Shown: in pieces, positions 23,889 through 57,638 of the stretch
Layout of the letters: the number at the start of each line of letters is the position of its first letter
Numbering within the stretch: the first letter of the stretch is position 1
Assembly (NCBI GenBank): GCA_030595715.1
Contig: JAUVCN010000002.1
Span: 1 to 57,638, forward strand
DNA: 57,638 nt
From: Thermoplasmatales archaeon
Lineage (GTDB): Archaea > Thermoplasmatota > Penumbrarchaeia > Penumbrarchaeales > Penumbrarchaeaceae
Reading direction: 5' to 3'
Notes under the pieces: model-generated
What the model was told of the DNA's origin: nothing
Seen by the model: the letters and a program-made list of their open reading frames with translations, nothing else
Databases searched by the model: none
Translations under genes and position numbers: made by a program

Positions 23889-26800
23889 TCAAAGGGCCAT
23901 ATCAGGAGAATCCATGATCTCTTTCAGGAAAGGTGTCATTGCGTTATCAACCCTACCTGAAACTCCGTCGACCGCCACAAGGCGGATCCTTCCTTTCCCC
24001 GCTATCTTTGCGATATAGTAAGGATACATTATCTCATCTAACTGAAGTATGGTAAGATCATCGGATAATATGCCGATCAACTTTTCTCCATCCTTTCTGG
24101 TAATAAATGGCTTAATGAACGGTTCTTCCAATCCTTCCACCCAATCAGGATGGATATTCGGATCCTTTGACCAGGGCTTCTTAGGTATATCCATATCATC
24201 GGAAAGAAAGAACAGGTTGACATTTCCCTCCAATGACGTCCTATCGACAATTCCCTTCTTCTGTAACGAAGTTAGGGACCTTCTCACGTCCTTCAGGGCA
24301 AGCTTTGCTCTTCTCGCGATCGTGAGATCTTCCCTTTTCCGGTGGTTGACCGCACCGTATACCTTTGCCTCGATATCTGTCATCTTCAACAATTTCAATA
24401 GTCCCTTCGATCGATCCAATCCGATCCTTGAACCGATCACTATCTCGCCTGATATCGCATCGATAAAGAGGTCACCTTCCTTCTGGTCCCTGAAAAGTGA
24501 CCCCTTGTATCCGAGAAGGAATCGATACAGGGGGATATAGGCCGGAACTATCTCCTCTAGATTCTCTTTTGGACCTCTGAGAAGTGATCTCTTGATGGTC
24601 TTCTTAGCAGATTCCGATGCGGTCTTCGAACCGATGATGGGGATCACAGCAACCGCTTGCTTACCTCTTTTAAGGACCTTCTTCTTCATCTTATTATGTT
24701 TCCTCTCAGCCTCTACTGGCGGTAAGGCCTTTTGAGGACCCACTGGTTCTTTCTTCCTTTGTACCTTTTTAATAGATCTTGCTCTTACATCTATGGTCTC
24801 ATCCTTTTTCTCGTGAATGTCCATTCTTTCTTTCATTTCCTTCAATTCGGATCTCAGGATCGATCCCATCAGATCAAGGCGATCTATGTTCTCTTTCCTA
24901 TCGGCCTCCATCCTCTCAAGTATCTTGATCAGAGCCTGGTCCCGGATATCATCACGGTGATAAGGTATCAGCTGCACCTCCTTCTTCATATTCTCCACTT
25001 CGGAAATGAGCTCCTTCAATTTCCTGTCACTCTTCCTTTTCATTTTCTTGTTGGACTCGTCATCCCATTTGAGGACCATACCCCTGACGCTTGTTTTCCT
25101 GCCGGTTTTGCCCTTTGATTTATCTTTTTTCAATTTATCCTCAAGCTCGTCGATCTTTCTGACCAACTTCTCATTCTCCTCTCTCGCTTCTTTGGTAGTG
25201 TCTACGAGGTCCTGGATTCGGTCCTCTTTATTGATCGATCTGTCATCTTCCGTTTTTATAAGTTCCTCTTCATGATCCAGTATCCTCTCGAGCAGTTTTC
25301 CTTCATTTCCATCCTTTGACAGACCAAGGACATCACACATCCATCTGAGATCTTCCTTCAAAAGTCCTCCTTCATGTTCTGGTTTGACCTCATCGATTTC
25401 GACTTTTACCCCTATCTCATCTTTACTTGATCCCGGATCGATCATGTCTTCCAGAGATCCGATCCGGATATCGGCCTCGGAAGCTATCATCGCTATGGTA
25501 TCTTTATCCATCCCAAGGTCAGCTCTCATTATCAGGTTCCCTTCGTTCACTATTACCTTCTCATGCAGGATCTCCAACAATCTTTTTACGGGTTCCTTTC
25601 CATTGTTGGCAACTATATAATCGAGTCCATCAAGCAATATGATCCTCTGTTTACTGCCAGAAAGGAATGAACCGGACTCCATGGAAATATCCTGAAGGGA
25701 TGTTGGAGGAATATTATCATCACCGGGTGTGGATGATAACCAGAATCTCTTTTTTATCTCTAGTGCAGTGCCAACAGGATATAGGTCCGGAGGCATCCTC
25801 GAGAACAGTACCGCGTTTCTATCAGCAGGAAGAGAGTCAAGAAGCTGGACCATAACCTCCTTTGATTGGTCGGTCACAAGGATGACCTTGCCTTTTTCAA
25901 TGTGAACTGTTGGATGTGTCTCCAAAACATCCTTGGGTCCCTTTGCCATGATCCCTTTTCTTATTGTTGAACCTGAGCCATCGGATCTTTGTATTGCTGT
26001 TGGTCGTGAAACGTCCGACCTTCCTTCGGATATGGTGTAATCACCTGAAATTGGGACCTTCTGAATATGTTCGACCTTCCTCTCTATGAAGGCCTTGGGC
26101 ATCGCTGATGATCCTGCATGATGGGAGAACCTTGGTCTTATCTTTAGCAGGAACGATCTCTGCTGTGTCCTCTGGTCTGCCATTATCCCCGTACCAACCG
26201 GTATTGCCCTTATGAAATCCGAATTGGCAAATTCTGCAGGAAGTTTTGCAGGCACCCTTCTTCTGAGAGCGGTCATATCATCTTCAAGAGCGAGATTGTG
26301 TCCGATCAGAAGATCGACCTGAGATAGGATCTCATCCGATGTAGAGGCTGGCCGTTGGGTTGCAAGGACCAGTGCGCAACCTGGTCTCCTACCCTGTTTG
26401 GCGTATTCAACCAAGGCCTCCGTAGCAGGTGTCTGACCTTTATGTGGAAGGATAATGTGTGCCTCATCGATCAGCAGCCAGGTCACAGGAATGATATCCT
26501 GGTCAAGTTCATCGTAATCCTCTCTTTCTTCCATTCTGGCAGAATGTATCCTTGCAGACAGTATCTTTCTTGCGACTATTCCTGTTATCAAACTTCTTTT
26601 CTCATCACCCAATCGTGGATCGCTTACATCGAGGATCGTTACTCTATTGGATGAACTGACCTCCTTGAGAGGTGTTCCTTCAACACTGAAAACACCCCAT
26701 GCTGAAGCCGCGTTGAACCTTGCAATGATAGATCTTCTTGTCTGCGGTGTGAATCCACCCGTTTTGCTGGTTATCGTGATGGATGTTTCTATACACTGGA

Positions 26801-27554
26801 TTATATCACCTATCGAATAAAGGTTCCTCCTTCCGGAAACATGGACTATCCTTCCTTCGTTCACTGAATCGTAACCCTTTCTAATCTGATCAATGACAGA
26901 CCCTATCAAAAGACCCTGGGTCTTGAACCTTGTAACATCAAATACCTGGCACCAATCTTCAGTTTCCATCTCGGAGACGCTTATCGAAAATATGCCATCT
27001 ATCGATGATGTGGTCTCCCCGAGTGAACCTTCCGGAACAAGAACCTTGACCTCTGGAAATGAATGCGGTTCCAGCCCCCATCTTTTCAATATCTCCTTTT
27101 CCTTCTTCGACCTGTTCTCGTTCTTCATCGACCAGAATATCCCGATCGGGTCGATCATAACGACCCCGACACCAATTGATGATCTTATTAATTCCTCTGC
27201 GAAGATCCCCAGAGTATATGATTTACCACTTCCCCTTTTTCCGCAGATGAAAATGATATGCGGAAAAGCAGCGTCGAGGAATACCTTTTTACCAAAAAGG
27301 TCCACTCCGGTGTCCTGATGTTCCCCTACTGCACCTATCTCGAGAAGTCCCTTCCTTCTCCATTTTTTGTGAGCCGATCCATTTCTTCCCAATACAACAT
27401 AGCCATCTTTATCGTCGATCAGGGGAACAAGAGGTGCTCTAACCCTTAGTATTCCTTCCTCTTCAATATCTATCGTCCACGGATCATCCATGTTATCTTC
27501 CTTTGAAGCCGGTGATCCCATGTCAGATCCTTCTACCCCATCCGAATGATCCAT
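23889..27554 (-). CDS. Multidomain HerA/FtsK-superfamily (DUF87-like) ATPase fused to a DUF835-like module, a possible SAP/HeH motif, a long coiled coil and a C-terminal wHTH-containing region
   Basis: 1221 aa. Walker A FICGKRGSGKSYTLG (aa 103-116), Walker B WLLIDEAHIILP (aa 359-370), ATQRP. DUF835-like RIILLDGLDYIVANNGKEPVKRLLEILHEKV (aa ~600-700). LRWMCDVLGLSKDGNEGKLLERIL (aa ~736-760). K/E coiled coil aa ~770-930. wHTH-like LTIARRAKLALKDVRRSLTSLQKKGIV (aa ~1076-1103). Confidence 0.8.
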   Translation of the reverse strand: MDHSDGVEGSDMGSPASKEDNMDDPWTIDIEEEGILRVRAPLVPLIDDKDGYVVLGRNGSAHKKWRRKGLLEIGAVGEHQDTGVDLFGKKVFLDAAFPHIIFICGKRGSGKSYTLGIFAEELIRSSIGVGVVMIDPIGIFWSMKNENRSKKEKEILKRWGLEPHSFPEVKVLVPEGSLGETTSSIDGIFSISVSEMETEDWCQVFDVTRFKTQGLLIGSVIDQIRKGYDSVNEGRIVHVSGRRNLYSIGDIIQCIETSITITSKTGGFTPQTRRSIIARFNAASAWGVFSVEGTPLKEVSSSNRVTILDVSDPRLGDEKRSLITGIVARKILSARIHSARMEEREDYDELDQDIIPVTWLLIDEAHIILPHKGQTPATEALVEYAKQGRRPGCALVLATQRPASTSDEILSQVDLLIGHNLALEDDMTALRRRVPAKLPAEFANSDFIRAIPVGTGIMADQRTQQRSFLLKIRPRFSHHAGSSAMPKAFIERKVEHIQKVPISGDYTISEGRSDVSRPTAIQRSDGSGSTIRKGIMAKGPKDVLETHPTVHIEKGKVILVTDQSKEVMVQLLDSLPADRNAVLFSRMPPDLYPVGTALEIKKRFWLSSTPGDDNIPPTSLQDISMESGSFLSGSKQRIILLDGLDYIVANNGKEPVKRLLEILHEKVIVNEGNLIMRADLGMDKDTIAMIASEADIRIGSLEDMIDPGSSKDEIGVKVEIDEVKPEHEGGLLKEDLRWMCDVLGLSKDGNEGKLLERILDHEEELIKTEDDRSINKEDRIQDLVDTTKEAREENEKLVRKIDELEDKLKKDKSKGKTGRKTSVRGMVLKWDDESNKKMKRKSDRKLKELISEVENMKKEVQLIPYHRDDIRDQALIKILERMEADRKENIDRLDLMGSILRSELKEMKERMDIHEKKDETIDVRARSIKKVQRKKEPVGPQKALPPVEAERKHNKMKKKVLKRGKQAVAVIPIIGSKTASESAKKTIKRSLLRGPKENLEEIVPAYIPLYRFLLGYKGSLFRDQKEGDLFIDAISGEIVIGSRIGLDRSKGLLKLLKMTDIEAKVYGAVNHRKREDLTIARRAKLALKDVRRSLTSLQKKGIVDRTSLEGNVNLFFLSDDMDIPKKPWSKDPNIHPDWVEGLEEPFIKPFITRKDGEKLIGILSDDLTILQLDEIMYPYYIAKIAGKGRIRLVAVDGVSGRVDNAMTPFLKEIMDSPDMAL

Positions 27555-27765: not shown

Positions 27766-29457
27766 ATGCCGAGGAAGGCCAATGTAAAATGGGCGGAAGA
27801 AGATGATGAGATGGAAAAGATAACTTCCAGGAAAAGAAAATCAAGATCCAAACCTAAAATTGAGGTTGAATATGACGATGCGGAAGAGGTAATTGCCAAA
27901 CCCAAAAAAAGGACAAAGGGTGCGATCGTGATCGAGGACGATGATGAGGACCCGATCGTTGAAAAGAAGGTTAAGAAGGCAAAGGTCATCGTCGAGGATG
28001 AACCGGAAGATATTGAAGAGCTTCTCGAGGAGGAAGAAGACCTGGAAGCCTATAGAATAAACGAGGATCTCAAAAAAGCCTTGGAAATGAAAGATGAGAT
28101 CGAAGCATCCTATGAATCCATTATCAAGGAAAGAACATCTCTCATCAGCAATGAAAAAGGCCTTCTTTCGAAGATGGAGAGTTACATCAAAGCTCATCTT
28201 CTCTCAATTCAAGATGATAGAGAGGACCTTGAAAAACGTGAGGAACGCATCAAGAAAGAGAGAAAGGACCTCATGGACAAGAGGGAGGACCTTCTCAAGG
28301 AGATCAAAGACCTTGAAAGTGAAAGAGATGAGTTCCTCGAACTCAGAAGTAACATCGAGGAAGAGAGAGAGACCTTCGAGGCACAGAAATCAGAGATCGA
28401 GAAAGAGTGGAAAGGCCTGGGAAAAGATAAGAAATTACTCGAAGAGAGGGAAATGCATCTGTTCGATGAGAAAGAAAAGGCCAAGAAGGAAAGGGAAGAA
28501 CTCACAGATGTAGAGGGCAAGATCAAGAAAGAGAGAATGCTCATCGACAAGGAATCAGAATCACTTGAGAGAAAGAGGGAACTATATCAATCCGACGTGG
28601 CTGAATTCCAGAAAGAAAGACAAGACCATGAGACCAAGTTCGATGAGTTCCATGAGAGATATAACAAATTCCGTGTGGAGTTCAAAGAATATGAAAGGGG
28701 ACAGGCCAAGCTTGAATCCTGGGAAAAGAGGCTTTCTGATGAAGAAGAACAGCTCATAAATGAGCAGAAGAAGCTGAAAAAGGAAAAGGATTCACTTGTC
28801 AAGGATCAGATGGAACTTGACAATTCTCGTGAGGATATCATTTCAGAAAAGAAGGACATGGAAAACAACAAGAAACTCTTTGATAAAGACAAGAACAGGA
28901 TCCTCTTGAAGGAAGAGGAGATCGAAGATGAGATGAAATCCATCAGGAACGAGAGAAAATCCCTTCATGAGGATCTCGATTCATTCGATGAAAGAAAGGA
29001 CAATTACATCTCGATCGATGATCACAATTCGGAGATCGAGGAATTGAAGGAGAAGATAGCCGATCTCGAATCCGTCAAGCACTCCGAAAAGGAAGACATG
29101 AAGGTTCCAAAGAAGAAGTTTATGAAGAAGAAGGCAAAGATAGAAGTTGAACCGGAACCTGAAGACGATGATGAAGAGATCATCAGCAGGCCCAAGAAGA
29201 AGAAGAGGAAGAAGGCTGCAGTTGTAATCGATGATGAGGATGAAGAAGACGATGATTACAACCCTTTCCTCGTGAAAAAGAAGGAAGAAAAGAAAACGGT
29301 TGAGCCCGAGGAAGAACCGGAGGAAAAGAAGTATAAACCGAAGGTTGTGAAATGCTCAAACAAAGATTGCGGCGCCAAGATAGTGGTCAAATCATCCAAG
29401 AGGCCTATTATCGTCAAATGCCCGAAATGCGGAAAGAAGGGAAAGCTCACAAAATAA
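27766..29457 (+). CDS. Highly charged K/E-rich coiled-coil (or single-alpha-helix) protein with a C-terminal zinc ribbon
   Basis: 563 aa. About 400 aa of uninterrupted E/K/R/D-rich helix-type sequence. C-terminus CSNKDCGAKIVV-x(13)-CPKCGKKG. Repeated basic-hydrophobic-acidic motifs at both ends. Confidence 0.75.
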   Translation: MPRKANVKWAEEDDEMEKITSRKRKSRSKPKIEVEYDDAEEVIAKPKKRTKGAIVIEDDDEDPIVEKKVKKAKVIVEDEPEDIEELLEEEEDLEAYRINEDLKKALEMKDEIEASYESIIKERTSLISNEKGLLSKMESYIKAHLLSIQDDREDLEKREERIKKERKDLMDKREDLLKEIKDLESERDEFLELRSNIEEERETFEAQKSEIEKEWKGLGKDKKLLEEREMHLFDEKEKAKKEREELTDVEGKIKKERMLIDKESESLERKRELYQSDVAEFQKERQDHETKFDEFHERYNKFRVEFKEYERGQAKLESWEKRLSDEEEQLINEQKKLKKEKDSLVKDQMELDNSREDIISEKKDMENNKKLFDKDKNRILLKEEEIEDEMKSIRNERKSLHEDLDSFDERKDNYISIDDHNSEIEELKEKIADLESVKHSEKEDMKVPKKKFMKKKAKIEVEPEPEDDDEEIISRPKKKKRKKAAVVIDDEDEEDDDYNPFLVKKKEEKKTVEPEEEPEEKKYKPKVVKCSNKDCGAKIVVKSSKRPIIVKCPKCGKKGKLTK

Positions 29458-30985: not shown

Positions 30986-31603
30986 TCATTTGGATCCTTG
31001 TGACAATCTTATGATAATAACGTCGATCCTCTTCTTCTCTGATCTATGGAAATCATATCTGGCAGGTATCTCGAGTTCATCCTTCCAAAGAAGTTCGAGG
31101 TCCTTATTCATGGACCTTGCCATTTTCCGGAGAAAATCGAGGGAATTACCGTTATGTATGGAGTAACAGACGGAAGATGATCCAATGGCCCTTTCTATGA
31201 AAACCCTATCAGCATGTTTGTTCTGAGCACCAAAAGGTGGATTCATCAGGGTTGTATCGAATTGCATGGGGAATGGAAATGGATCACGAACATCATGTAC
31301 CATGAACTCCAATTCAGATGAAGGAGGGGTCTTCAACCTGGATGCTATATCGACCAGGTTCTCCTTGGCTATTCTTATCGCATCTTCATCTATGTCAACA
31401 CCTAGTACCTCTTTTGCTCCGAGTATCCAAGAACCTATCGCAAAAGGAGATGGACCACAACCAAGTTCACAAACCCTTCTATCAATGATATCATTTCTGT
31501 ACCTGGCCTCGTAAAGGACATCACAAACCATCGATGCAGGTGTCCTGTACTGTTCGAGTTCTGATCGGGGTTGCGGCATATCCTTCATGGATGATATCAG
31601 CAT
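30986..31603 (-). CDS. METTL5-like N6-adenine RNA methyltransferase (NPPF motif)
   Basis: 205 aa. LEQYRTPA, SAM motif VCELGCGPSPF, GVDIDEDA and catalytic LMNPPFG. Confidence 0.75.
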   Translation of the reverse strand: MLISSMKDMPQPRSELEQYRTPASMVCDVLYEARYRNDIIDRRVCELGCGPSPFAIGSWILGAKEVLGVDIDEDAIRIAKENLVDIASRLKTPPSSELEFMVHDVRDPFPFPMQFDTTLMNPPFGAQNKHADRVFIERAIGSSSVCYSIHNGNSLDFLRKMARSMNKDLELLWKDELEIPARYDFHRSEKKRIDVIIIRLSQGSK

Positions 31604-31626: not shown

Positions 31627-32562
31627 TTACTCCTCCTTTCCAATTCCCAGTTCATCCAACAAGAGGCATCCTCTGCAAATAGGTTTTTCTCCTTTCTCCA
31701 CAACCGCTTCTCCGCATCTGGTACATGATGACACATGGGACCTCCCTCTCGGGATCAGAGGTGAGATATGGTCTCTGAACTTCAGTAGAGAATGTCTTGT
31801 TCCGGGTGTCTCCTCTTCAGCCTTCAACAGAAGATCCCGGTAATGCCCTCTCTTGGCCGTTTCCGCATATGGACATTCCTCACCATGTATGGGTATTCCA
31901 AGCAGCAATGCACAAAGATATGTCTCGGTCTCCGGTGTGGTTCTGAGCGGCATGGACCTCGGTATCAATCCTGGTATGGGATCCATATGCGGACCCAATC
32001 TGGCCAATCTTTGTACATCCGCCTGCATTACGTTCATAAGCACCGTCTGGGCCATATCATCAAGATTGTGACCGGTAACAAGAACACCACAATCAGCTTC
32101 CTTTGCAGCTCGATTAAGTGCATTCCTTCTGAGTATTCCACATATCGAACAAGGACCCATGTCACTTTCCTTCACCATGTCATCCAGATCCTTTCCGAAA
32201 AGGTTCCTGTAATCGCTCAGGTGCCATTCCACGCCCAATTCCTTCGTTATTCCACCTGTGATATCCAGTGATGAGGGGCGGTATCCTGCGATACCCTCGT
32301 CTATGGTCAGAGCAACAATATCAACATCCCTGAAAGGTCTTACAATCTCATTGACCATACGGAGGACCACAAGCGAGTCCTTCCCCCCGGATACTGCGAT
32401 CCCTATTCGTCTACCCTTTTCTATGGTATGTTGGGCCCTCATCTCCTTTTTGACCCTTCTTCCAACAAGGTCCAGGAAATGATCACTACATAGATGCTGC
32501 CCGCTGTACCTGAGGAAATGTATCGGAGGTTCGCTGCATCGGTCGCATTTGGATGCCATCAT
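31627..32562 (-). CDS. tRNA 2-thiolation PP-loop ATPase (TtuA/Ncs6 family)
   Basis: 311 aa. N-terminal CDRC...C..H zinc finger, PP-loop IAVSGGKDSLVV, CSICGILRR, C-terminal CTRC...CRGC. Confidence 0.8.
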   Translation of the reverse strand: MMASKCDRCSEPPIHFLRYSGQHLCSDHFLDLVGRRVKKEMRAQHTIEKGRRIGIAVSGGKDSLVVLRMVNEIVRPFRDVDIVALTIDEGIAGYRPSSLDITGGITKELGVEWHLSDYRNLFGKDLDDMVKESDMGPCSICGILRRNALNRAAKEADCGVLVTGHNLDDMAQTVLMNVMQADVQRLARLGPHMDPIPGLIPRSMPLRTTPETETYLCALLLGIPIHGEECPYAETAKRGHYRDLLLKAEEETPGTRHSLLKFRDHISPLIPRGRSHVSSCTRCGEAVVEKGEKPICRGCLLLDELGIGKEE

Positions 32563-32600: not shown

Positions 32601-33284
32601 TTATGATTCGTTCTCCTGGATCTTGTTATTACACCAGGTGCAACGGTGGTTCCACAATCCAGAGAATGATGGATCATCAGGAGGAAGTACCCTGTATGGA
32701 GCTCCGCATCTCGGGCAATGTCCTACTCTCATACGGGTGTAATCGAGCCTGAACTTCTCCTTTGACATTGGAGGTTCAACCTTTACTGGTTGTCTGTATA
32801 CCCTAACAGGTTCCTCAACGGGAATGAGGATGTCCTCTATCACAAGTGTCCTCAATCCCGAGTCAGAGAATTTCTGCCTGTCATCTTCTGCATTGCTTCT
32901 TCCGACTATAAGGTCGATGAACGGTCCGAATAAAGGAACGATATTTGTAATATTTCTACCAAGGGCCTGCCCGAAAGAAGCACCCCCATCGGGTGATATC
33001 ACGATCAGTCCGAAAATCAACTTTCCTATCGATCGTCCAAAACCTGCTTCCATGATCGTCTTGTAAATGAAGGTCACAGCTCCGGAGATAGCAACGATAT
33101 AGGCCCAGTTCAAAGCATCATTCAGGTCCGCTTCCAGTGCATAGAATCCAATAATTACAGCGAAAGACGCGATCACCAGGTCAAGAAGATATGCACCGAT
33201 CCTTTTGGTCATATATCCATCGGTCTTTGGAAAATCCTGCGGGTCCCATTCTTCACCTTCGTCTCGGTATTCCATCAATCCCAC
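32601..33284 (-). CDS. RDD-family membrane protein with a C-terminal zinc ribbon
   Basis: 227 aa. KRIGAYLLDLVI... with 3 TM helices typical of the RDD domain. C-terminus CPRCG-x(23)-CTWCNN. Confidence 0.75.
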   Translation of the reverse strand: MGLMEYRDEGEEWDPQDFPKTDGYMTKRIGAYLLDLVIASFAVIIGFYALEADLNDALNWAYIVAISGAVTFIYKTIMEAGFGRSIGKLIFGLIVISPDGGASFGQALGRNITNIVPLFGPFIDLIVGRSNAEDDRQKFSDSGLRTLVIEDILIPVEEPVRVYRQPVKVEPPMSKEKFRLDYTRMRVGHCPRCGAPYRVLPPDDPSFSGLWNHRCTWCNNKIQENES

Positions 33285-33346: not shown

Positions 33347-34627
33347 TCATACGGAAACATTCTTTGAATCCTTCTTCAACTCGAAAAGAAGCTCCTTTTC
33401 GATCATATCGGTCTCTTCTTCCAGGTCAAGGTCCTCATATGGATTCTCTGCATCAGGTTTGTCCAGACCACTTCTGGCATATCTCTTGTGCTCTTCCATT
33501 TCTACCTGTTCTTCTCTCTTCACTATCTCCTTCTTGTGTAAAACTCCGTGAAGGACCTTCCTGACCAATGTCACGGTTATTGGTTCCTTCATCAGATCCG
33601 CATAAGCGGTCACCCGATTGAAACCACCTTCAAGTTCCCTTACGGACACATCTAGATAGAATGCAAGGTAATCCATGACCTCCGTGGATATCGAGAAACC
33701 ATTTCTCTGTGAAAGATTGAGAAGTATCTGTCTTCTCCCCTCGAATGTTGGAACCTGTATGTCAATGATCAGACCTCCCTCAAAACGTGACCTTAGCCTT
33801 GTTTCCAGTTCCTTTATATCAGTAGGGGGCCTATCACTGCAAAGTACGATCTGTTTTCCCGAGTTGTATAGATGATTGAACATGTGGAAGAACTCTTTCT
33901 GGGTAGCTTCCCTTCCTGATAGCATCTGGATATCATCGATCAATAGTACATCGATATTACGATACATTTTCCTGAAACCGATAATATCGTCATTCGATAG
34001 GGACCTGATAAGTTCATCCGTGAATCTTTCCGTGGAAGAATAGAGTACTTTCAGTTCAGGATCATTGGAGATCATCCTATTTGCGATAGACTGAAGTAGA
34101 TGGGTCTTCCCAACACCAACTGGACCATAAACAAAAAGGGGATTATACCGCCTGCCCTCTCCTGTAGCGACAGCTTCTGAGGCAAGATAGGGGAACCTGT
34201 TCGAATCATCCACAACGAAATTCTCGAATTTCTTATTCAACAGGATCGGGGAAGTTATCCTCTCAAAAGGGTCATCTTCATCCGGAGTATCCTTTGGTCC
34301 ATCCATAATTTTTAATGATCGTGGTTTGGAGATAGGTTCTTCAGCTGAGCGTTTACCGGCTACCAGTATACTCTTCATTGCTGAACGCTGATTGTCAAGG
34401 GTCCTGTTCCATTTTGTCTGAAGCGTGTTGAAGCGTTCTTGCATCTCCTTGATCTTGGTCTCCCGATCCCTGTTCTTTTCTCTTTCTATCTCCAATTGCT
34501 TCAATATTTCCTTGTTCGTTTCAGCCTGTTCATCACTGATCCCAACTCTATCTCCGACCGATACTGATGAAAATTTGGTAGATCTACCCTTTTTTCGTTT
34601 CCCGGTTAACCAGTCAAACAGCCCCAA
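33347..34627 (-). CDS. DnaA-type AAA+ ATPase (DnaA domain III only; no domain IV) with an N-terminal amphipathic motif and coiled coil
   Basis: 426 aa. FENFVVDDSNRF...YNPLFVYGPVGVGKTHLL (Walker A, aa 168-175), VLLIDDIQMLSGREATQKEFFHMFNHLYNSGKQIVLCSDRPP (Walker B and the DnaA signature), RLRSRFEGGLIIDIQVP (box VII), SVRELEGGF (sensor II). The C-terminal 65 aa are acidic with no HTH. Confidence 0.8.
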   Translation of the reverse strand: MGLFDWLTGKRKKGRSTKFSSVSVGDRVGISDEQAETNKEILKQLEIEREKNRDRETKIKEMQERFNTLQTKWNRTLDNQRSAMKSILVAGKRSAEEPISKPRSLKIMDGPKDTPDEDDPFERITSPILLNKKFENFVVDDSNRFPYLASEAVATGEGRRYNPLFVYGPVGVGKTHLLQSIANRMISNDPELKVLYSSTERFTDELIRSLSNDDIIGFRKMYRNIDVLLIDDIQMLSGREATQKEFFHMFNHLYNSGKQIVLCSDRPPTDIKELETRLRSRFEGGLIIDIQVPTFEGRRQILLNLSQRNGFSISTEVMDYLAFYLDVSVRELEGGFNRVTAYADLMKEPITVTLVRKVLHGVLHKKEIVKREEQVEMEEHKRYARSGLDKPDAENPYEDLDLEEETDMIEKELLFELKKDSKNVSV

Positions 34628-34746
34628 TATGCATCCCTTGCCACATCTAACAGATGATCATTTCTACTACAATTATTATCATTCCATTATTTGGATATTA
34701 AAGTTTTCTACATTTTTTTATTAATATCATAAACTGATAATTGATA

Positions 34747-35808
34747 TCATTTTTCGTATCCCCTTAACAATTCTGCAGTAAGTCCTGTTATCACAGGTTC
34801 TGCATACTTGAGATCATCAGATGAACCTTTTCCTGCTAAAAATACGGCAGCCCTTAACTCCTCAATTATCATGCTGATCTCCTTCACCAGCTCATCGTAA
34901 CCGACCGAAGCCGCTTTAAGAAGATGCCTTGCCATACCTCCAGCAGATGCTCCCAGTGATAGGGCCTTTGCAATATCAAGCCCATTCCTCAGACCTCCAG
35001 TGCCTATCAATGGAATTCCAACATTGGCCCATTTCAGTGAGATAGGAGTTGGAATACCCCAATCCCAGAAAGTCCTTCCAAGCCTTTCAGATCTTCCTTT
35101 AGGATCGTGTCTATATGATTCAATGCCGGAGAAAGTCGTACCTGACATCCCACCCACATCAATGGCTGCAACTCCCATCGCATCCAGTTCCAATGCATCT
35201 TTTCTTGATATTCCCCCTCCAGTCTCCTTTGCCACGATAACGAATTCCGATGTTACCTGTTTGAGGACCTCCCTGAAGCCTATGATATAATTATCTCCCT
35301 CAGGTTGAACTACCTCCTGAAGGTAGTTCAGATGAATGCATATGGCATCAGCATTGATCATGTCAACAGCTACCCTTATCTCATCAATTCCATATTTCCC
35401 ATCCTCGATCCCATTTGAAAACTGTGGAGCACCAAGGTTGCCAAAAACCAATGGGATATCATATTCCTTGACGATATCGTAGCTTTGTCTGAGCTTCGTA
35501 TCCTCGATTCCAGCTCTCTGTGAACCAACACCCATGGCGATCTGGAACTCCGAAGCGGCCTTTGCCAGCATCTCATTGTACTTCTTGGCCTGGGGACTTC
35601 CACCTGTCATGGATGCGATCACGATGGGAGCTGCAAGCTCTTTACCAAGGAGAACGGTCTTCAGTTGAACATTCTCCAGGTCCGTTTTTGGCAGTGCCCT
35701 GTGGGGGAGATGGACATCATCCCAATGATTCCTGGTCGCTATCACATTCTCTTCCAATGATATTCTGATATGGTCCTCCTTTCTTCTTACTATCTCCACT
35801 GGTCCCAC
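34747..35808 (-). CDS. fni: Type 2 (FMN-dependent) isopentenyl-diphosphate delta-isomerase
   Basis: RRKEDHIRISLEEN, ASMTGG, FGNLGA, VAKETGGGIS and GTGGLRNG motifs. The ATG at 35901 would overlap ipk by 92 nt. A GTG at 35808 sits 1 nt after the ipk TGA stop and is the more likely start. Confidence 0.85.
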   Translation of the reverse strand: MGPVEIVRRKEDHIRISLEENVIATRNHWDDVHLPHRALPKTDLENVQLKTVLLGKELAAPIVIASMTGGSPQAKKYNEMLAKAASEFQIAMGVGSQRAGIEDTKLRQSYDIVKEYDIPLVFGNLGAPQFSNGIEDGKYGIDEIRVAVDMINADAICIHLNYLQEVVQPEGDNYIIGFREVLKQVTSEFVIVAKETGGGISRKDALELDAMGVAAIDVGGMSGTTFSGIESYRHDPKGRSERLGRTFWDWGIPTPISLKWANVGIPLIGTGGLRNGLDIAKALSLGASAGGMARHLLKAASVGYDELVKEISMIIEELRAAVFLAGKGSSDDLKYAEPVITGLTAELLRGYEK

Positions 35809-35809
35809 C

Positions 35810-36652
35810 TCACAATGACTGTTGCTGTTCTCGTGACGGAAATCTTGTCCCCGCTCTGCCTCCGGATAATACCGTTTCAAGGTTATTTCCAATATCTCCA
35901 CCTATCAAGAACGTTTCTATCCCATTATCAGCAAGTTCTCTGCAAACAAGGACCTTACCCCAGATCCCGCCGCTTACATCACCCTGGTTGTTGTAGATAT
36001 GGCTCTTCCACTCCTCCTTCTTTCTTTCGAACATGAATTCGTTGATCTCTCCCACAACCTTTCCTGTCTTTGGATCTATAAATCCTTCCTTGTCCATTAT
36101 CATGATAACTTTATTGATATCCTCTCCGTTCTGTCTCTTTTCACTAGATATCTTTCTTATCAGTGTATCACCTGAGACCACGGACCAGCCTCCATTTACA
36201 TCCGGTACGAAATCACCTCTCAGAACAGGAACACAATCCCTTTCAATGATATTTTGGATCAGTTTCATTGATATTTCAAAAATATGTCCTGAATCGGATA
36301 TGACGATATCAGAAGTTGGTATGGAGATCGTTGGTACCTTCTCCTCACCCATTACCCTGACGAGTGTAGCGGTCAATTGGTCCATTCTCCATTTGACCTC
36401 CCATGCCATCATCGGTACGGATCCTTTTGTTACTCCCTCTCTCCATCGTACTACGGTCCTGTGGCCATGGGTCCCTCCACCATGAATCAGAATCACCTTC
36501 TTATCACGATGTCTTTTAATAACCTGGGCCACCTTTCTTATCAGGTCTTCCCTTATCCGGTATCTCCTGTGGATCTCGTTTCCATTGTAAGGAGGAAGAC
36601 AATCATCCTTCTTGTATGTGATGAAGGATCCGCCCAGTTTGATCAAGATCAT
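35810..36652 (-). CDS. ipk: Isopentenyl phosphate kinase (amino-acid kinase fold)
   Basis: 280 aa. MILIKLGGSFITYK, ILIHGGGTHGH, VLRGD and SGDTL motifs. Confidence 0.85.
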   Translation of the reverse strand: MILIKLGGSFITYKKDDCLPPYNGNEIHRRYRIREDLIRKVAQVIKRHRDKKVILIHGGGTHGHRTVVRWREGVTKGSVPMMAWEVKWRMDQLTATLVRVMGEEKVPTISIPTSDIVISDSGHIFEISMKLIQNIIERDCVPVLRGDFVPDVNGGWSVVSGDTLIRKISSEKRQNGEDINKVIMIMDKEGFIDPKTGKVVGEINEFMFERKKEEWKSHIYNNQGDVSGGIWGKVLVCRELADNGIETFLIGGDIGNNLETVLSGGRAGTRFPSREQQQSL

Positions 36653-36710
36653 TTCATTTTCCCCTTTCTCAAATATATTAATCTTTGAATATATTCATTT
36701 TAGGGTGAAA

Positions 36711-37322
36711 TCAATGTTGAATACGGAGACCGATCGCTTCCAACCTCTCACCGTCGATATCTCGTGTAGAAATAATTTCAACATCCCTGTCATAGATATT
36801 CATTGGATCCATATCATCTATTCTCCATTGAGGATACCTCAGTATTATTATAATCCCATCCTTCCTCAGAAATCTGTGAGCTGATGAAAGGAATTTCGCT
36901 GACAGCTCCCATCCGATCTTCCCACCGACCAGGGGAAGATCCGTTCTTCTATCGAGGATGACCCGACCCAAGGGAAGATAGGGAGGATTGAAGGATATGA
37001 TATCGGCCCAACCATTGTATGACCTGGGTATTCCATCGAAAAGATCCGATATCATCGGTCTGGCGGAAATATCATTCAGCTTCAGGTTATCCCTCAAGAG
37101 TCCGAGTGCTGCCGGTTCCCTGTCTATCGACAGGACGTTAAAACCTTCTTTCGCAGAAACCAGGGTCAGTAGACCACTCCCGCAACCCATGTCTATCAAC
37201 TGACCCGTGCCATTGAACTTGGACCTCACCGCACCTATAAGAAGTAATGAATCCTCTTCAACTGGATATACGGGATCCGTATAAAGGTAACTCAAGCCTT
37301 CGTACTCGTAGACGATCTCCAT
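36711..37322 (-). CDS. HemK/Mtq2-like SAM-dependent methyltransferase (NPPY motif)
   Basis: 203 aa. LIDMGCGSGLL, ISFNPPYLP. Confidence 0.75.
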   Translation of the reverse strand: MEIVYEYEGLSYLYTDPVYPVEEDSLLLIGAVRSKFNGTGQLIDMGCGSGLLTLVSAKEGFNVLSIDREPAALGLLRDNLKLNDISARPMISDLFDGIPRSYNGWADIISFNPPYLPLGRVILDRRTDLPLVGGKIGWELSAKFLSSAHRFLRKDGIIIILRYPQWRIDDMDPMNIYDRDVEIISTRDIDGERLEAIGLRIQH

Positions 37323-37415
37323 GACAGAGTAATGTGGACAGAATAGATCAAACTTTCATTACTTCTTGAAAAGATTTAAGAAACAAGATGACTTAGATTG
37401 GAGCAGTGATACCAC

Positions 37416-38396
37416 TTGTCTCCGAAAGTGTTCATGAAGGATCCGATCGAAAAGGCTGATTTCGCGCCAAAGAGGTTCAGGGCATTCATAGACCTCGTTA
37501 GGCCATTTACACTTCTGGCTCCGCTCTTCGGTGGATTATCGGGTTCATTTCTTGGATTGATCGTGGAAGGAAAACTGTCAACACCATATTTAACCATCGA
37601 ACCACCATTTTTCATATGGGGCGGTCTACCGTTCATAGAGATGCTTTCAGGTATCGTTTCCCTTGTACTTCTCAACGCCGCGTCCAACACATTGAACCAG
37701 GTATATGACAGGGATATCGATAAGATCAATAAATCATATAGACCCATCCCGGCTGGCATTGTCAGTGCCAAAGAGGGGCTCTGGATCGCCATCCTTCTTT
37801 ACGGTTTTTCTCTCTGGAGGGCTGCTCTGATCAATCGGTGGTTTTTCGGTATGGTCCTGGTCTTGGTGCTCTTCACAATATTCTATTCGGTTCCCCCGCT
37901 CAGATTGAAAAAGAGATTATGGATAGCGAACCTATCCATAGCCATACCAAGAGGTATAATGGGATTTGTTGCTGCCTGGGTAATAACAGCCGATATCTAC
38001 AATCCGATCCCCTGGCTGATCGGATCGATCATGTGCATTTTCCTGATCGGATCGACAACAGCGAAGGATTTCACCGATATGATCGGTGATGAGAGATTTG
38101 GAATGAGGACCCTCCCGGTCGTATATGGAAAGAAAAAAGCAATATTCCTCTCTATTCCATTCCTTATAATCCCATTCCTTGTCCTCGGGATATACTGGGC
38201 AATGGGGCTGATGCCACCCGGAACCATCGTCATGGTGATAGTTCTTCTTGTATGGTCCTTGATGATCATCTGGATGTTCACCAAGGAGGCTGACAAGGAG
38301 GACGAGCATTTCGAGAATTCGGCTGTATGGATCCATTTCTATCTCATCCTGTTGGGAATGCAGATCGGATTCCTTTTGGTCTACATATTCAATTGA
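37416..38396 (+). CDS. UbiA-family prenyltransferase, probably digeranylgeranylglyceryl phosphate synthase
   Basis: 326 aa, about 8 TM. NQVYDRDIDKINKSYRPIPAG (NxxxDxxxD) and a second Asp-rich region KDFTDMIGDERFG. Adjacent to ipk and fni. TTG start, with an ATG alternative at 37434. Confidence 0.7.
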   Translation: MSPKVFMKDPIEKADFAPKRFRAFIDLVRPFTLLAPLFGGLSGSFLGLIVEGKLSTPYLTIEPPFFIWGGLPFIEMLSGIVSLVLLNAASNTLNQVYDRDIDKINKSYRPIPAGIVSAKEGLWIAILLYGFSLWRAALINRWFFGMVLVLVLFTIFYSVPPLRLKKRLWIANLSIAIPRGIMGFVAAWVITADIYNPIPWLIGSIMCIFLIGSTTAKDFTDMIGDERFGMRTLPVVYGKKKAIFLSIPFLIIPFLVLGIYWAMGLMPPGTIVMVIVLLVWSLMIIWMFTKEADKEDEHFENSAVWIHFYLILLGMQIGFLLVYIFN

Positions 38397-41587: not shown

Positions 41588-42043
41588 ATGCCACGACTGA
41601 CCAGTAAAATGACATTGAAGATCGAACCGGAGCTCCTGCGACGGATCCAGGCCAAGGCCGAATCCAGGGGAGTGTCGGTCAGTTATTACGTCAGAGAAGC
41701 AGTGATCGAGCATATCCGGGAAACGGAGGAAGAGATCTCGCCCAGCACCATGAGGATCAATATGACCCTCATGGAAACACATGTCCTAACGCAACTGATC
41801 AGGATAGGAGCAATGACCGAGCCTCAAGAGATGTTCCACAAGGCTTTCGATTCATATGTATCGAACGATCTTGAAAGGACCCTCAATTTCGCTCATGGTC
41901 TCAAGGACATGAGAGAATTTCCCTCCATGGTACCGCTTACAACCCGTAGATCCAGGACCATGAGATTCAATGACCTGGAAATAGATGACGACCTTGAAGG
42001 GGATATCGAGAGAAAGGATCGAGATAAAACGGGGTCCGGTTAG
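41588..42043 (+). CDS. Ribbon-helix-helix (CopG/MetJ-like) DNA-binding protein, possibly a tandem RHH
   Basis: 151 aa. MTLKIEPELLRRIQAKAESRGVSVSYYVREAVIEHI is a canonical RHH. A second weaker unit is MRINMTLMETHVLTQLIRIG. SD aaggtgg 5 nt upstream. Confidence 0.6.
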   Translation: MPRLTSKMTLKIEPELLRRIQAKAESRGVSVSYYVREAVIEHIRETEEEISPSTMRINMTLMETHVLTQLIRIGAMTEPQEMFHKAFDSYVSNDLERTLNFAHGLKDMREFPSMVPLTTRRSRTMRFNDLEIDDDLEGDIERKDRDKTGSG

Positions 42044-42084: not shown

Positions 42085-42744
42085 ATGAAAAATTCAAATG
42101 ATGCTGGTATAAGTTCAGATCAGAATATGATCCATCTGATTTGCATGAAAGGAAATATTGAAGATATCGTCAAATGTTCCGATTCAAGAGGAAGTAGAAG
42201 AACGATCGTTAAGAGAGCAATAGATATTTTGATAGGTCTATCACTTAAAGGATATGAAGGAAGGGTAATAGGTGCGATATACCTTGTTGGCGATATTGAA
42301 CGGGTCAAGAAAAACTCCACCCAGATGATCATAAATCCATTCAAAGGATGGAAAAATGTGAACATCAAGGATAACAAGCAGCTACCAACTATAGAATCGT
42401 TCACTCAACTTGATGGAGCCATTGTCTTTGATAACAGAGGCCTGGCCCATTACGCAGGAAGGATGATCAAGGTCAAAGAAGATGAATGTGAAAGGGAAAA
42501 TAAGGATTTCAATAAGAGAAGTGGAAAAGGATCCGGGACCAGATGGAGGGCTGCCAGGTTCATCACAGCGAGGACAGGAACGATCGCACTTACACTTTCC
42601 AGTAGCGGCAACATCACTGTATTCAGGGATGGCAAGGCAATTGGACGATTGGAAAGAAGATTGTGCAGTATGAATGTGAAGGATGTTCCCATTTATCTGC
42701 ATCCACAGAACGATGATCGATCGATAATAACCCATGATCCCTGA
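42085..42744 (+). CDS. DisA_N/DAC (diadenylate cyclase) domain protein with a non-canonical RWR motif
   Basis: 219 aa. VIGAIYLVGD, LDGAIVFDNRG (DGA at nt 42412-42420), GSGTRWRAARFITARTGTIALTLSSSGNITVFRDG (RWR at 42541-42549 where DAC enzymes have RHR). Confidence 0.7.
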   Translation: MKNSNDAGISSDQNMIHLICMKGNIEDIVKCSDSRGSRRTIVKRAIDILIGLSLKGYEGRVIGAIYLVGDIERVKKNSTQMIINPFKGWKNVNIKDNKQLPTIESFTQLDGAIVFDNRGLAHYAGRMIKVKEDECERENKDFNKRSGKGSGTRWRAARFITARTGTIALTLSSSGNITVFRDGKAIGRLERRLCSMNVKDVPIYLHPQNDDRSIITHDP

Positions 42745-47371: not shown

Positions 47372-49432
47372 GTGATTTCTAAAATGAAGGGAGACCTTTT
47401 TCATCTCCAGGCTGGCCGATCAATGGGATCCATCGCAAGAGATCACAGTTTAGAGGCTATAGAGGTAAGAAGACCTTTGAAGGCCAGACTGTACATTACT
47501 GTGGCCACCATAACTATCATGATCATGCTCCTTGGTTCTGCTTTCTCTATATATGTTCTCGACAACAACGGAATTAATGATCCGGGAATTCCAAGTGATA
47601 AAAAGGGGTCCAACGATCTTGAGATCAAGATAACACAGGGAATAGATCAGCTCATTTCAAACAAACAGATGACCATCAAAGGGAAAGTCGAAAATGGCGA
47701 TGGCTTCTTCATGGATAACGCTAAGATCTCTGCTAAGGTTCCCCTCCTTACATCAAATGTCTACAGGTCCTTTACAGATCCGAATGGCCAGTTCGAACTC
47801 AACATGGTCCTTCCACCTTTTGATGGTTCGGGAAATTATACTCTAGAGATACTTTCTGAAAAGGATGGATATAACCCGGATGTTGTTGATCTTTACCTGG
47901 AATATCTGAGACCGCCAAAATGGACCTTCATGGTATACATGAGCGATTGCGACCTGGAAACATGGGCCTTGAAGGATATAAACGAGATGGAGACCATAGC
48001 TGGAAATGAGATGGTAGACATCGTCGTCCAGCTCGACAGATGGGAAAGCCTATCTGTCAAGGATGACAGGAGCGATGGCAACTGGACCACGGCAAAGAGG
48101 TTTCTGATAGAGGAGGATGTCCAAAACAGCATCATCAGATCCACCGAGGTGCAAGATATTGGAGAGATCAATTCAGCAGAACCGGAGCAGCTTGTTGATT
48201 TTTCAACATGGGCCATGGAGGAATATCCCGCTGACCATTATGCACTGATACTCTGGAACCATGGATCGGGAATTGACGGGATCTGCTGGGAGCAGAGCCT
48301 CGAGACCGAGGAGGTCATATCCATCAATGAACTGGGATGGGCATTGACAAGGATCTCCGACATATCCGGTCAGAACCTGGACATCATCGGTTTCGATGCC
48401 TGCCTGATGTCAGCAATGGAAGTAGCATATGAGATCTCGGGAACATCGGATATAATGATCGGATCCGAGATAACAGAACCCGCGTACGGATGGGATTATA
48501 CAGTGATCGATGATCTGGTCGATGATCCGTATATGACCCCCATGCAGCTGAGCAAGAATATCGTGGAGTCATACATTTCCCAATTGGGAGATATCGGATC
48601 AAAGAAATCAATGAGCCTCGGTGTTTATGATCTATCCAAAATGGAAGACCTTGCAGACGCATTGAACGATCTGTCAACGACCATTAGCAATGCTGGTTCC
48701 AGCGAACTCTACAATATGAGGATCGCACGAAAATATGCTCAACCGATACAGGAAGGACATTCATCCGATGCAGTTGACCTGTACGATTTTGTCGATAACA
48801 TAGGAAAGACCACCGACAATTCCATTGTGAGGGAGAAAGCGGCAATCGTACTTGATCGAATAGGCTCATGTGTCATCCATTTCGACAAGATACAGGTGGG
48901 GGGCTTCTCAATCGATGGTCTCAACGGTCTATCGATCTACGCCCCCGATTTCAAGGATGTTCTGAACTCCAATGAGGATTATGACGACCTGAAAATGTCA
49001 TCGGATGTTTCCTGGAAGGACCTGCTCATTGATTATTACGATTCCATGAACGATCTTATCGAGGACAAGATACTGGATTTCGATGTCGCCCTTCTTTCCT
49101 GTTCAACATCCGATAAGGACAATGACGGCCGCATGGACACCATGAAGTACCATTTCTCAGTCCATTCAAAAGAGGACAATGTGGATGCATTCTTGGGGAT
49201 CAACATCTACGATCTAAGAGGGGACCATATTTCATCTATAGGACACAGCTTCGTTGTCTCATCCGAGAATCATAAAAGTTTCACCGTATCATTTACATTG
49301 GATGCAGAGGACGGAGGACCTGGCATGTACAGGGTGACCGCATATCTCTGCAAGGGTAACTCGTTTGACCAGAGATTTTTTCAGGATTATACAAGGTCAA
49401 GTTACAGATGGTTAGAGATATACAATGATTAG
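47372..49432 (+). CDS. Clostripain-like peptidase C11 family secreted/anchored cysteine protease
   Basis: 686 aa. N-terminal TM ITVATITIMIMLLGSAF. LILWNHGSGIDG (His, nt 48254-48265) and IIGFDACLMSAMEVAYE (Cys, nt 48392-48403). Confidence 0.8.
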   Translation: MISKMKGDLFHLQAGRSMGSIARDHSLEAIEVRRPLKARLYITVATITIMIMLLGSAFSIYVLDNNGINDPGIPSDKKGSNDLEIKITQGIDQLISNKQMTIKGKVENGDGFFMDNAKISAKVPLLTSNVYRSFTDPNGQFELNMVLPPFDGSGNYTLEILSEKDGYNPDVVDLYLEYLRPPKWTFMVYMSDCDLETWALKDINEMETIAGNEMVDIVVQLDRWESLSVKDDRSDGNWTTAKRFLIEEDVQNSIIRSTEVQDIGEINSAEPEQLVDFSTWAMEEYPADHYALILWNHGSGIDGICWEQSLETEEVISINELGWALTRISDISGQNLDIIGFDACLMSAMEVAYEISGTSDIMIGSEITEPAYGWDYTVIDDLVDDPYMTPMQLSKNIVESYISQLGDIGSKKSMSLGVYDLSKMEDLADALNDLSTTISNAGSSELYNMRIARKYAQPIQEGHSSDAVDLYDFVDNIGKTTDNSIVREKAAIVLDRIGSCVIHFDKIQVGGFSIDGLNGLSIYAPDFKDVLNSNEDYDDLKMSSDVSWKDLLIDYYDSMNDLIEDKILDFDVALLSCSTSDKDNDGRMDTMKYHFSVHSKEDNVDAFLGINIYDLRGDHISSIGHSFVVSSENHKSFTVSFTLDAEDGGPGMYRVTAYLCKGNSFDQRFFQDYTRSSYRWLEIYND

Positions 49433-52882: not shown

Positions 52883-52894
52883 AATGAAGGCGAT

Positions 52895-54081: not shown

Positions 54082-57638
<3,557 letters not shown>

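Follow-up and report, generated by a model that had tools for sequence, protein, structure and literature searches.

A bacterial-type DnaA domain III with replaced flanking domains, conserved in an archaeal class

DnaA is seen as the hallmark of replication initiation in bacteria, and Orc1/Cdc6 as that of archaea and eukaryotes. The stretch of DNA analyzed here, referred to at its full length of 57,638 nucleotides as the window, comes from a Thermoplasmatales archaeon (assembly GCA_030595715.1, contig JAUVCN010000002.1, positions 1 to 57,638) and carries on its minus strand a gene for a 426-residue DnaA-like protein. Residues ~120-360 of this protein are, with near certainty, a true DnaA domain III. 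An earlier note on the window had already read the protein as a module of this type and not of the Orc1/Cdc6 type, and hidden Markov models (HMMs), sequence and fold searches of the PDB and a phylogenetic tree all agree.

The reading frame of the gene is intact and opens with a TTG codon, so that the protein begins MGLFDWLTGKRKK. This start is credible because the N-terminus, of the form MG[LFI][LF]DW, can be aligned across 29 homologues (alignment A1); at the matching codon, 15 of the 17 orthologous loci have ATG. GC content is even across the gene and its flanks. Upstream lies an AT-rich intergenic region of 119 nt, wider than any gap within the co-directional run of genes, and its TATA-like elements suggest that it is probably the gene's own, putative promoter. 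The gaps of 62, 38 and 23 nt reported previously for the genes that follow match the open reading frame (ORF) coordinates. The same run had been described as headed by the DnaA-like gene, but it extends further upstream on the same strand, over the genes for type-2 isopentenyl diphosphate (IPP) isomerase (IDI2), isopentenyl phosphate kinase (IPK) and a methyltransferase.

The Pfam model Bac_DnaA (PF00308) matches residues 133-289 (E=1.8e-60, 204 bits) and, as had been expected, there is no match to PF08299 and none to a Cdc6/Orc model. The DnaA equivalog model of NCBIfam, TIGR00362, scores 311.3 bits over positions 44-343 of 437, under its cutoff of 343.9 because the last quarter of the model, corresponding to domain IV, has no counterpart in the protein. 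The Hda model TIGR03420 reaches 102 bits against a cutoff of 194.8. Of the IstB models, PF01695 (IstB_IS21) passes its cutoff with 36 bits, compared with 204 for PF00308, and NF038214 gives 54 bits against a cutoff of 200. A phmmer search of the PDB returned DnaA from Bacillus subtilis at 236 bits, from Thermotoga at 188 and from Aquifex at 156; non-DnaA matches include Escherichia coli Hda (36 bits), DnaI (~25 bits) and DnaC. Foldseek ranks the PDB in the same way: the top 11 structures are all DnaA, the best being B. subtilis domain III (8bv3, 49% identity), followed by Hda and then generic AAA+ proteins. No Orc1/Cdc6 structure appears among the top 50 fold matches, and Pfam gives no Cdc6_C or Orc match. 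Identity to domain III of B. subtilis DnaA amounts to 49% over ~235 residues, whether the comparison uses the sequence or the predicted fold. The protein therefore groups with DnaA and not with a common archaeal AAA+ family such as Orc1/Cdc6 or IstB.

The motifs that the earlier note had listed (FxNFV, LLIDDIQ, box VII, sensor II and others) are all present and invariant in the family. When the functional residues of E. coli and B. subtilis DnaA were mapped onto the 29 family sequences, Walker A K174, Walker B D231/D232, sensor I D265, box VII R277, the arginine finger R281 and sensor II R330 proved invariant in 29/29, as did E200, the equivalent of the catalytic glutamate E204 of E. coli DnaA. 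The residues through which DnaA contacts single-stranded DNA (ssDNA) at the DnaA-trio are known from a cryo-electron microscopy structure of the B. subtilis protein (PMC10721633). Its E183, I190, I193 and R202 correspond to E200, I207 (I/L/V in the family), L210 and R219 of the window protein, and its K222, E223 and E228 to R/K239, E240 and E245. In the AlphaFold2 (AF2) model, the initiator-specific motif (ISM) takes the form of two helices, residues 199-211 and 215-223. The protein thus shares with bacterial DnaA domain III (B. subtilis 8BV3/8BTG; Aquifex 2HCB/3R8F) the initiator-clade AAA+ fold, the two-helix ISM and the lid, together with Walker A and B, sensor I, box VII, the arginine finger, sensor II and most of the DnaA-trio ssDNA contacts. 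Going by these residues, the predicted determinants of ATP-dependent self-assembly and ssDNA engagement are kept in the main clade of the family. The description "DNA-binding-less" was correct in that the double-stranded DNA (dsDNA)-binding domain is missing, but it is overstated because most ssDNA-contact residues of domain III are conserved.

What surrounds domain III differs from DnaA, as judged from alignment A1 and the AF2 model (mean predicted local distance difference test score, pLDDT, 76). Pfam finds no match to domain I (DnaA_N, PF11638) in the 426 residues, and a custom domain I HMM is also empty. In place of domains I and II there are an N-terminal peptide, a coiled coil of 60 residues and a linker that is disordered (Table 1). 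In the peptide, of the pattern MG-hydrophobic-DW, G2 and D5 hardly vary and 26/29 sequences have W6; the first 16 residues carry a net charge of ~+4, and the peptide recurs in the distant relatives P0141 and P0180. From its sequence, it is a candidate membrane- or partner-binding peptide, and membrane targeting is plausible. SepF, with which the N-terminus had been compared, is encoded at 18307-18708 and does begin MGWFRKK. The coiled coil, described in the earlier note as a K/E coiled coil of ~45 residues, is present but longer, and AF2 models it as one helix. Its heptad register (a = N L N I F W Q I; d = I E R M L T A A) puts hydrophobic residues at a/d, with a conserved Asn in one of the a positions; L45, E48, M62, E63 and Q70 are conserved. 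The modelled coiled coil is probably dimeric.

On the other side, domain IV, the helix-turn-helix (HTH) that binds DnaA boxes, has given way to a charged linker followed by an acidic helix that is conserved at the C-terminus. The connector that follows domain III consists of a helix (residues 362-385, pLDDT ~50-60) and then a disordered stretch; its sequence varies in A1 and has no Pfam matches. The C-terminal helix has the consensus LEEETDxIEKELLxELxK with six invariant positions (L402, E405, E410, L413, L414 and E416), and the motif is common to the divergent orthologues described below and to P0141, P0144 and P0217. The tail is acidic as reported, with 20 D/E against 12 K/R in the last 66 residues. 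The lack of domain IV is borne out by the missing PF08299 match, by the TIGR00362 match that ends at 343/437 and by the model, in which the tail is a linker helix and a single short helix with no cryptic HTH. Six-frame translation of the window and of 33 related loci likewise gave no domain-IV-like ORF. Compared with bacterial DnaA, the archaeal protein therefore has neither DnaA-box binding nor a DnaB/DnaD-type N-terminal interaction domain, and its gene, in an archaeal host, is not beside dnaN or oriC; it adds the peptide, the coiled coil and the acidic helix. A possible identity of the C-terminal helix as a MIT-interacting motif (MIM1) was considered and set aside, as by eye only 3-4/6 consensus positions fit.

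Table 1. Coordinates of the DnaA-like gene, its parts and its neighbors in the window
Feature	Position	Strand	Basis or remark
DnaA-domain-III-only gene, stop codon included	33347..34627	-	426 aa, TTG start; PF00308, TIGR00362
N-terminal conserved peptide, aa 1-13 (MGLFDWLTGKRKK)	34589..34627	-	hydrophobic/aromatic patch and polybasic stretch
Coiled coil, aa 32-91	34355..34534	-	AF2 single helix, pLDDT ~75-93
Variable disordered linker, aa 92-119	34271..34354	-	pLDDT <50 at aa 93-117; length and sequence vary in A1
DnaA domain III, aa 120-360 (AAA+ IIIa with ISM, and lid IIIb)	33548..34270	-	phmmer, Foldseek, AF2
Charged connector helix and acidic variable linker, aa 361-401	33425..33547	-	takes the place at which domain IV of DnaA would start
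C-terminal acidic helix, aa 402-422 (LEEETDMIEKELLFELKK)	33362..33424	-	AF2 helix; family hallmark
AT-rich 119-nt intergenic region upstream of the DnaA-like gene	34628..34746	-	TATA-like TTTAATAT, TTAATAAAAAAA
RDD-family membrane protein with C-terminal zinc ribbon (CPRC...CTWC)	32601..33284	-	Pfam RDD PF06271
TtuA/NcsA-like tRNA 2-thiolation enzyme	31627..32562	-	Pfam TtuA_LIM_N and PP-loop
Small S-adenosylmethionine (SAM)-dependent methyltransferase	30986..31603	-	Pfam PrmA/MTS
Type-2 IPP isomerase (IDI2)	34747-35901	-	TIGR02151 349 bits, above cutoff; syntenic in all loci
Archaeal isopentenyl phosphate kinase (IPK)	35810-36652	-	NF040647 124 bits, above cutoff; syntenic in all loci

The family is archaeal and narrowly distributed. 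About 45 homologous clusters of 400-460 residues share 50-80% identity, and the close homologues all come from metagenome-assembled genomes (MAGs) of Thermoplasmatota; in a scan of one genome per GTDB species, the family was found in 17 genomes, again all Thermoplasmatota. Its host is the class EX4484-6 or Candidatus Penumbrarchaeia, and the label EX4484-6 appears in two isolate names among the 17 genomes. The class was only recently given the latter name, in a paper that does not mention the DnaA-like gene (PMC12220078). Around the gene, an archaeal block of ~20 kb keeps the same gene order in 17/17 loci and in further metagenome contigs: Pus10 and UbiA on one strand and, diverging from them, a methyltransferase, IPK, IDI2, the DnaA-like gene, RDD, the TtuA-like gene, another methyltransferase and a TPR gene. 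Beyond the TPR gene, the conserved order continues with a 563-residue protein and then a HerA-DUF835 protein. The 563-residue protein, at 27766-29457 (+) in the window and syntenic across the class, has no Pfam match. As the earlier note held, the neighbors are archaeal: IPK, IDI2, a UbiA-family prenyltransferase, Pus10 with an archaeal THUMP domain and a threonyl-tRNA synthetase with the archaea-specific editing domain. The window also encodes Rpb4/RpoF, DUF655, SepF, ZPR1 and EMC6_arch. Since the order is the same in all 17 loci and the further contigs, the gene has been inherited vertically and is not the product of a chimeric assembly; synteny is identical in independent assemblies and GC content is uniform. 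Within the main clade, domain III is 72-76% identical, compared with 40-66% for the flanking genes of the same loci against their window copies, a difference that points to strong selection on the AAA+ module. The gene appears, from these comparisons, to be under purifying selection.

An exhaustive HMMER search of 1.84 billion representatives yielded 20,626 relatives; with canonical single-module DnaAs the window protein shares 45-52% identity. A neighbor-joining tree of 102 domain III sequences (100 bootstraps, Hda as outgroup) unites the family and its divergent syntenic orthologues in a clade with 96% bootstrap. This archaeal clade lies within the DnaA radiation, and DnaA and Hda are separated at 100%, in line with the placement proposed earlier; deeper nodes have bootstraps of 0-7%. 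The closest named canonical DnaAs, at 50-52% identity, belong to Patescibacteria and Aquificota, which are unrelated phyla, and nearly as close are those of B. subtilis (49%) and Roseiflexaceae (48%). The protein is a vertically inherited, lineage-specific archaeal protein derived from a bacterial DnaA, and the tree supports no particular donor or sister group. Proteins of ~640 residues from Gemmatimonadota were considered as the nearest relatives and rejected: they have the top total bit scores after the archaeal family, but these are inflated because each protein carries two tandem modules, and identity per module is 35-44%, below that of canonical DnaAs. These bacterial proteins (P0047-P0120, e.g. 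P0089 and P0065) also consist of domain III without domains I and IV, with a linker between the two AAA+ modules and none of the terminal motifs of the archaeal family. There are 99 of them among those retrieved, annotated only as "DnaA/Hda family protein".

The family is not the only setting in which DnaA domain III occurs without domains I and IV. Among the 150 best representatives of the exhaustive search, at least five other architectures were seen. P0141, P0144 and P0217 have the same layout of peptide, coiled coil and C-terminal helix. P0170, P0174 and P0222 have a MGFIDKL-type N-terminal peptide and a coiled coil and end just after domain III. In six proteins (P0140, P0175, P0168, P0261, P0220 and P0202; loci L053 and L059), domain III is fused to a C-terminal DUF835, in P0161 and P0167 to a C-terminal double zinc ribbon, and one further family has a different conserved C-terminal domain. 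DUF835 is the output domain of inactivated KaiC (iKaiC) in archaeal signal transduction (PMC5847659). The DUF835 fusion P0175 lies on an archaeal contig, adjoining PolD DP2 and a KaiC-like PF06745 ATPase. In locus L069 (6045-12078), the genes immediately after that of the coiled-coil protein P0174 encode a DUF835 protein, a KaiC-like ATPase and a Ras/Roc-DUF835 fusion; this contig, too, is archaeal (LSM, RpoK, S2, Cbf5 and Nep1). These cases suggest a recurrent neighborhood of DnaA domain III with iKaiC and KaiC in archaea. In the window itself, a 1221-residue protein at 23889-27554 (-), combining a HerA/DUF87 ATPase with DUF835, is encoded five genes downstream and syntenic in all related loci, which is loosely in keeping with this theme. 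Some of the large proteins retrieved (P0161, P0167, P0158, P0234, P0121 and P0123) are up to 1990 residues long and have one or two domain III modules; some end in a double zinc ribbon that echoes the zinc ribbon of the RDD protein encoded next to the window gene.

That RDD-family protein is a likely partner of the DnaA-like protein, from genomic context. The RDD domain (PF06271) is matched at E=1.2e-12 with 48.7 bits against a cutoff of 24.1, and in the AF2 model transmembrane helices at residues 24-49 and 57-82 and a short helix at 120-131 are followed by a disordered Pro-rich linker and a small C-terminal beta-hairpin domain. The latter corresponds to a strongly conserved zinc ribbon, CPRCGAPYRV...LWNHRCTWCN. 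A profile search separates 52 clusters at 229-363 bits, the named ones all Thermoplasmatota, from a next match at 119 bits and a remainder at <=44 bits to which the generic bacterial RDD proteins belong. Many of the 52 clusters lie on contigs that equal in length those with the DnaA-like gene. Wherever the contig reaches far enough, the RDD gene is immediately downstream of the DnaA-like gene, including in divergent orthologues of 31-39% identity. Because the two genes share a narrow phyletic range and are invariably adjacent, their coupling is better supported than by synteny of the block, and the zinc ribbons fused to the C-terminus of domain III modules in other lineages lend it weak support of the Rosetta-stone type. 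The survey of Thermoplasmatota MAGs that the earlier note had proposed thus found both orthologues and conserved linkage to the RDD gene. Of the linked downstream run as a whole, only the RDD gene is coupled in this lineage-specific manner, while the TtuA/NcsA-like and methylase genes are syntenic neighbors inside a block that is syntenic as a whole. To judge from sequence, the latter look like ordinary tRNA/rRNA-modification genes, the NCBIfam NcsA and TtuA matches of the thiolation enzyme being below cutoff.

A protein that holds the filament-forming half of DnaA without its origin-recognition half could be explained in several ways. The explanation that is tentatively preferred here, at somewhat less than an even chance when taken as a whole, is that it forms a membrane-associated, ATP-switched, ssDNA-engaging assembly and is an accessory factor in DNA replication or maintenance. 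In such a scheme, ATP binding would be followed by head-to-tail oligomerization via the arginine finger, and the ISM would impose an open helical assembly instead of a closed ring, as it does in DnaA, DnaC and Orc. In the main clade, the resulting spiral would hold or open ssDNA through the residues that DnaA uses. The coiled coil would dimerize the protein, and targeting would depend on this dimerization, on the N-terminal peptide and on the RDD/zinc-ribbon protein instead of on sequence-specific dsDNA binding; together, these three elements would position the assembly at the membrane, on its cytoplasmic side. A partner-binding or auto-inhibitory function may fall to the acidic C-terminal helix. 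As to the cellular role, one guess is that the protein supplements the archaeal Orc1/Cdc6-MCM machinery, without taking its place, as an accessory ATP switch in the replication, maintenance or membrane-proximal handling of DNA. The mechanistic part of this proposal is possible but doubtful, as ATP binding, oligomerization and association with ssDNA and membrane are all argued from homology to DnaA and related proteins.

Several observations weigh against this proposal. Two base-contacting asparagines of B. subtilis DnaA, N187 and N196, are replaced by Asp in the window protein, and the B-motif R245 of E. coli DnaA is Ala, a position at which B. subtilis has Gln. The N-terminus had been described as amphipathic, and its hydrophobic patch and basic residues are indeed conserved, but its hydrophobic moment is only moderate (0.34 in the window protein and 0.52 as the family mean, where the 95th percentile for 8-mers of the window protein is 0.67), and AF2 models it with low confidence. 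The distant relative P0217, in a Thermoplasmata archaeon, has no RDD neighbor, and since the entire ~20-kb block is syntenic in a narrow lineage, adjacency alone is weak evidence. In the slot that the gene occupies in the syntenic block, three loci carry divergent orthologues: P0180 (L056), P0209 (L054) and an ORF of L063 (604-1737). None of the three still has D232 of Walker B (DD having become DN or ED) or R277 of box VII; several of the ISM and ssDNA-contact residues are gone as well, and in one case the arginine finger. Still present are Walker A, sensor II, the lid and the C-terminal helix, and with them the N-terminal peptide or the coiled coil. Function on this side branch therefore cannot depend on hydrolysis or canonical ssDNA contacts, and by extension from these sequences the conserved function of the family may be independent of both.

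The foremost alternative does without DNA: the protein would be an AAA+ switch or adaptor between proteins, its DnaA module co-opted for ATP-dependent oligomerization or signaling, for example in the KaiC/iKaiC-type regulatory networks of archaea or in a membrane process together with the RDD protein. What the divergent copies lost is the set of ssDNA and ATPase residues, and what they kept are the termini and the lid. Other archaeal domain III modules are fused to the iKaiC output domain DUF835 or adjoin DUF835 proteins and KaiC-like PF06745 ATPases, the HerA-DUF835 protein is syntenic five genes downstream, and the neighbors of the window gene include membrane-lipid and membrane-protein genes. 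Nevertheless, three other coiled-coil-type lineages share with the main clade a conservation of the ssDNA-contact residues as strict as that of the catalytic ones, which is difficult to account for without a nucleic-acid ligand, and the DUF835 link of the window family exists only at the level of neighborhood, within a block that is syntenic throughout. A switch without DNA action is unlikely, though it deserves to be taken seriously.

A bolder version of the assembly on ssDNA sees in the family a domesticated DnaA melting filament that stretches ssDNA with the help of ATP, held at the membrane by its RDD/zinc-ribbon partner and acting in chromosome replication as co-initiator or regulator, beside Orc1/Cdc6 or, in some lineages, instead of it. 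This is rather improbable. Should it hold, the versions fused to DUF835/iKaiC and to zinc ribbons would mark a widespread and unrecognized archaeal system derived from DnaA.

The next alternative is a helicase loader resembling DnaC or DnaI, whose coiled coil or C-terminal helix would grip MCM or another helicase while the AAA+ spiral, on binding ssDNA and ATP, loads or remodels it. The layout would fit, as DnaC, DnaI and IstB share with the archaeal protein a partner-binding N-terminal region, an initiator/loader-clade AAA+ module with an ISM and the lack of a dsDNA-binding domain, a common design logic that includes an ATP-dependent spiral on ssDNA, for the archaeal protein by homology. The PF01695 match above cutoff, DnaI and DnaC among the PDB matches and a PHROG match to "DnaC-like helicase loader" (E=1e-18) point the same way. 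The similarity in sequence is weak, however, as DnaC, IstB and DnaI fall far under DnaA (36 bits where DnaA has 204 in Pfam, ~25 where it has 236 in the PDB), and the syntenic loci contain no linked helicase or transposase gene. Archaeal MCM, moreover, is loaded by Orc1/Cdc6. A loader is thus a poor candidate.

Poorer still is a negative regulator of the Hda type, an option raised in the earlier note, which would use its arginine finger to stimulate ATP hydrolysis by a replication initiator in analogy to the bacterial regulatory inactivation of DnaA (RIDA). Hda/HdaA does resemble the archaeal protein in belonging to the DnaA-family AAA+ proteins, in lacking domain IV and in its conserved arginine finger, and NCBI names some members of the archaeal family "DnaA/Hda family protein". 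Hda scores much lower than DnaA, however: NCBIfam gives 102 bits for Hda and 311 for DnaA, the PDB search 36 and 236, and in the tree Hda is the outgroup at 100% bootstrap. The archaeal protein differs from it in its long N- and C-terminal extensions and in keeping the ISM ssDNA-contact residues that are missing in E. coli Hda. The bacterial clamp-binding motif (QL[SP]LPL-like) and the archaeal PIP (PCNA-interacting peptide) box were found in 0/29 family sequences, and no full-length DnaA that could be regulated is evident among the listed close homologues or in the loci.

It is very unlikely that the protein is the actual replication initiator, replacing or duplicating Orc1/Cdc6, while a partner DNA-binding protein recognizes origins in trans, for instance through the zinc ribbon of the RDD protein. 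The residues by which DnaA forms filaments, acts as an ATPase and contacts ssDNA are conserved as a full set, and the gene belongs to the conserved core block of the class. No Orc1/Cdc6 gene is found in the window or related loci, an absence that is uninformative with only ~60 kb of the genome visible. The protein resembles archaeal Orc1/Cdc6 in its host and, at the superfamily level, in its AAA+ initiator clade, without the winged-helix domain or a Cdc6/Orc HMM match. Against an initiator, there is no origin-like region and no dnaN or dnaB nearby, DnaA boxes are not enriched in the window (2 matches to TTWTNCACA against 3.85 expected), and the decayed active site of the divergent orthologues would be unlikely in an essential initiator. 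Finally, a contaminant, a chimeric contig, a decaying pseudogene or a mobile, viral or defense gene, as the bacterial affinity and the automatic annotation as "chromosomal replication initiator protein DnaA" might suggest, is next to impossible given identical gene order in 17 independent species-level MAGs and several metagenome contigs, uniform GC content, an intact ORF and invariant motifs, with no meaningful PADLOC or PHROG match to indicate a viral, plasmid or defense origin and no members on viral contigs or phage records.

The sequences of the family are already public, labeled "chromosomal replication initiator protein DnaA" or "DnaA/Hda family protein". A literature search found no paper on an archaeal, DnaA-derived family without domain IV and no description of this one, in agreement with the earlier statement that such a protein has no assigned role. 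The sole archaeal "DnaA-like" entity found in the literature is the SSV-type ATPase arCOG07960, which shares the archaeal setting and the name but is unrelated: it is associated with viruses and only remotely similar to DnaA, whereas the window family has true DnaA-level identity and no viral link. The automatic label is misleading for the annotation of archaeal MAGs, for origin prediction and for contamination screens.

What the family shows is a true DnaA ATPase core long fixed in an archaeal class, with its catalytic, oligomerization and ssDNA residues kept and both targeting domains replaced. If it acts on DNA, it would be a natural experiment that parts the filament and melting activity of DnaA from origin recognition, and an instance of replication machinery reused across domains of life. 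If it does not, an initiator AAA+ module would have been redeployed as a generic switch. The occurrence of DnaA modules lacking domain IV in several other archaeal contexts, such as the iKaiC/DUF835 and zinc-ribbon fusions, makes the phenomenon wider than one lineage.

Other features of the window are of separate interest. The cumulative GC skew has its minimum at ~36000-38000, and gene orientation flips from minus to plus at a gap of 93 bp between 37322 and 37416; because this gap is too short for an origin, the minimum probably reflects coding-strand bias. A diadenylate-cyclase (DAC) domain protein at 42085-42744 (+) is preceded by a ribbon-helix-helix protein at 41588-42043 (+), a pair that is conserved in related loci, and a 794-residue protein at 42861-45245 (+) has no Pfam match. 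Large, probably secreted or surface proteins are clustered at 465-4454, 8137-10695, 14056-18117 and 47372-49432; they include a C25 peptidase with Big_13, FN3 repeats, FG-GAP with He_PIG and a C11 clostripain, and are consistent with the protein-degrading lifestyle proposed for the class. The GC content rises to ~0.50 at 52001-56000, which covers an aconitase gene and the ORFs that follow it, compared with ~0.44 elsewhere.

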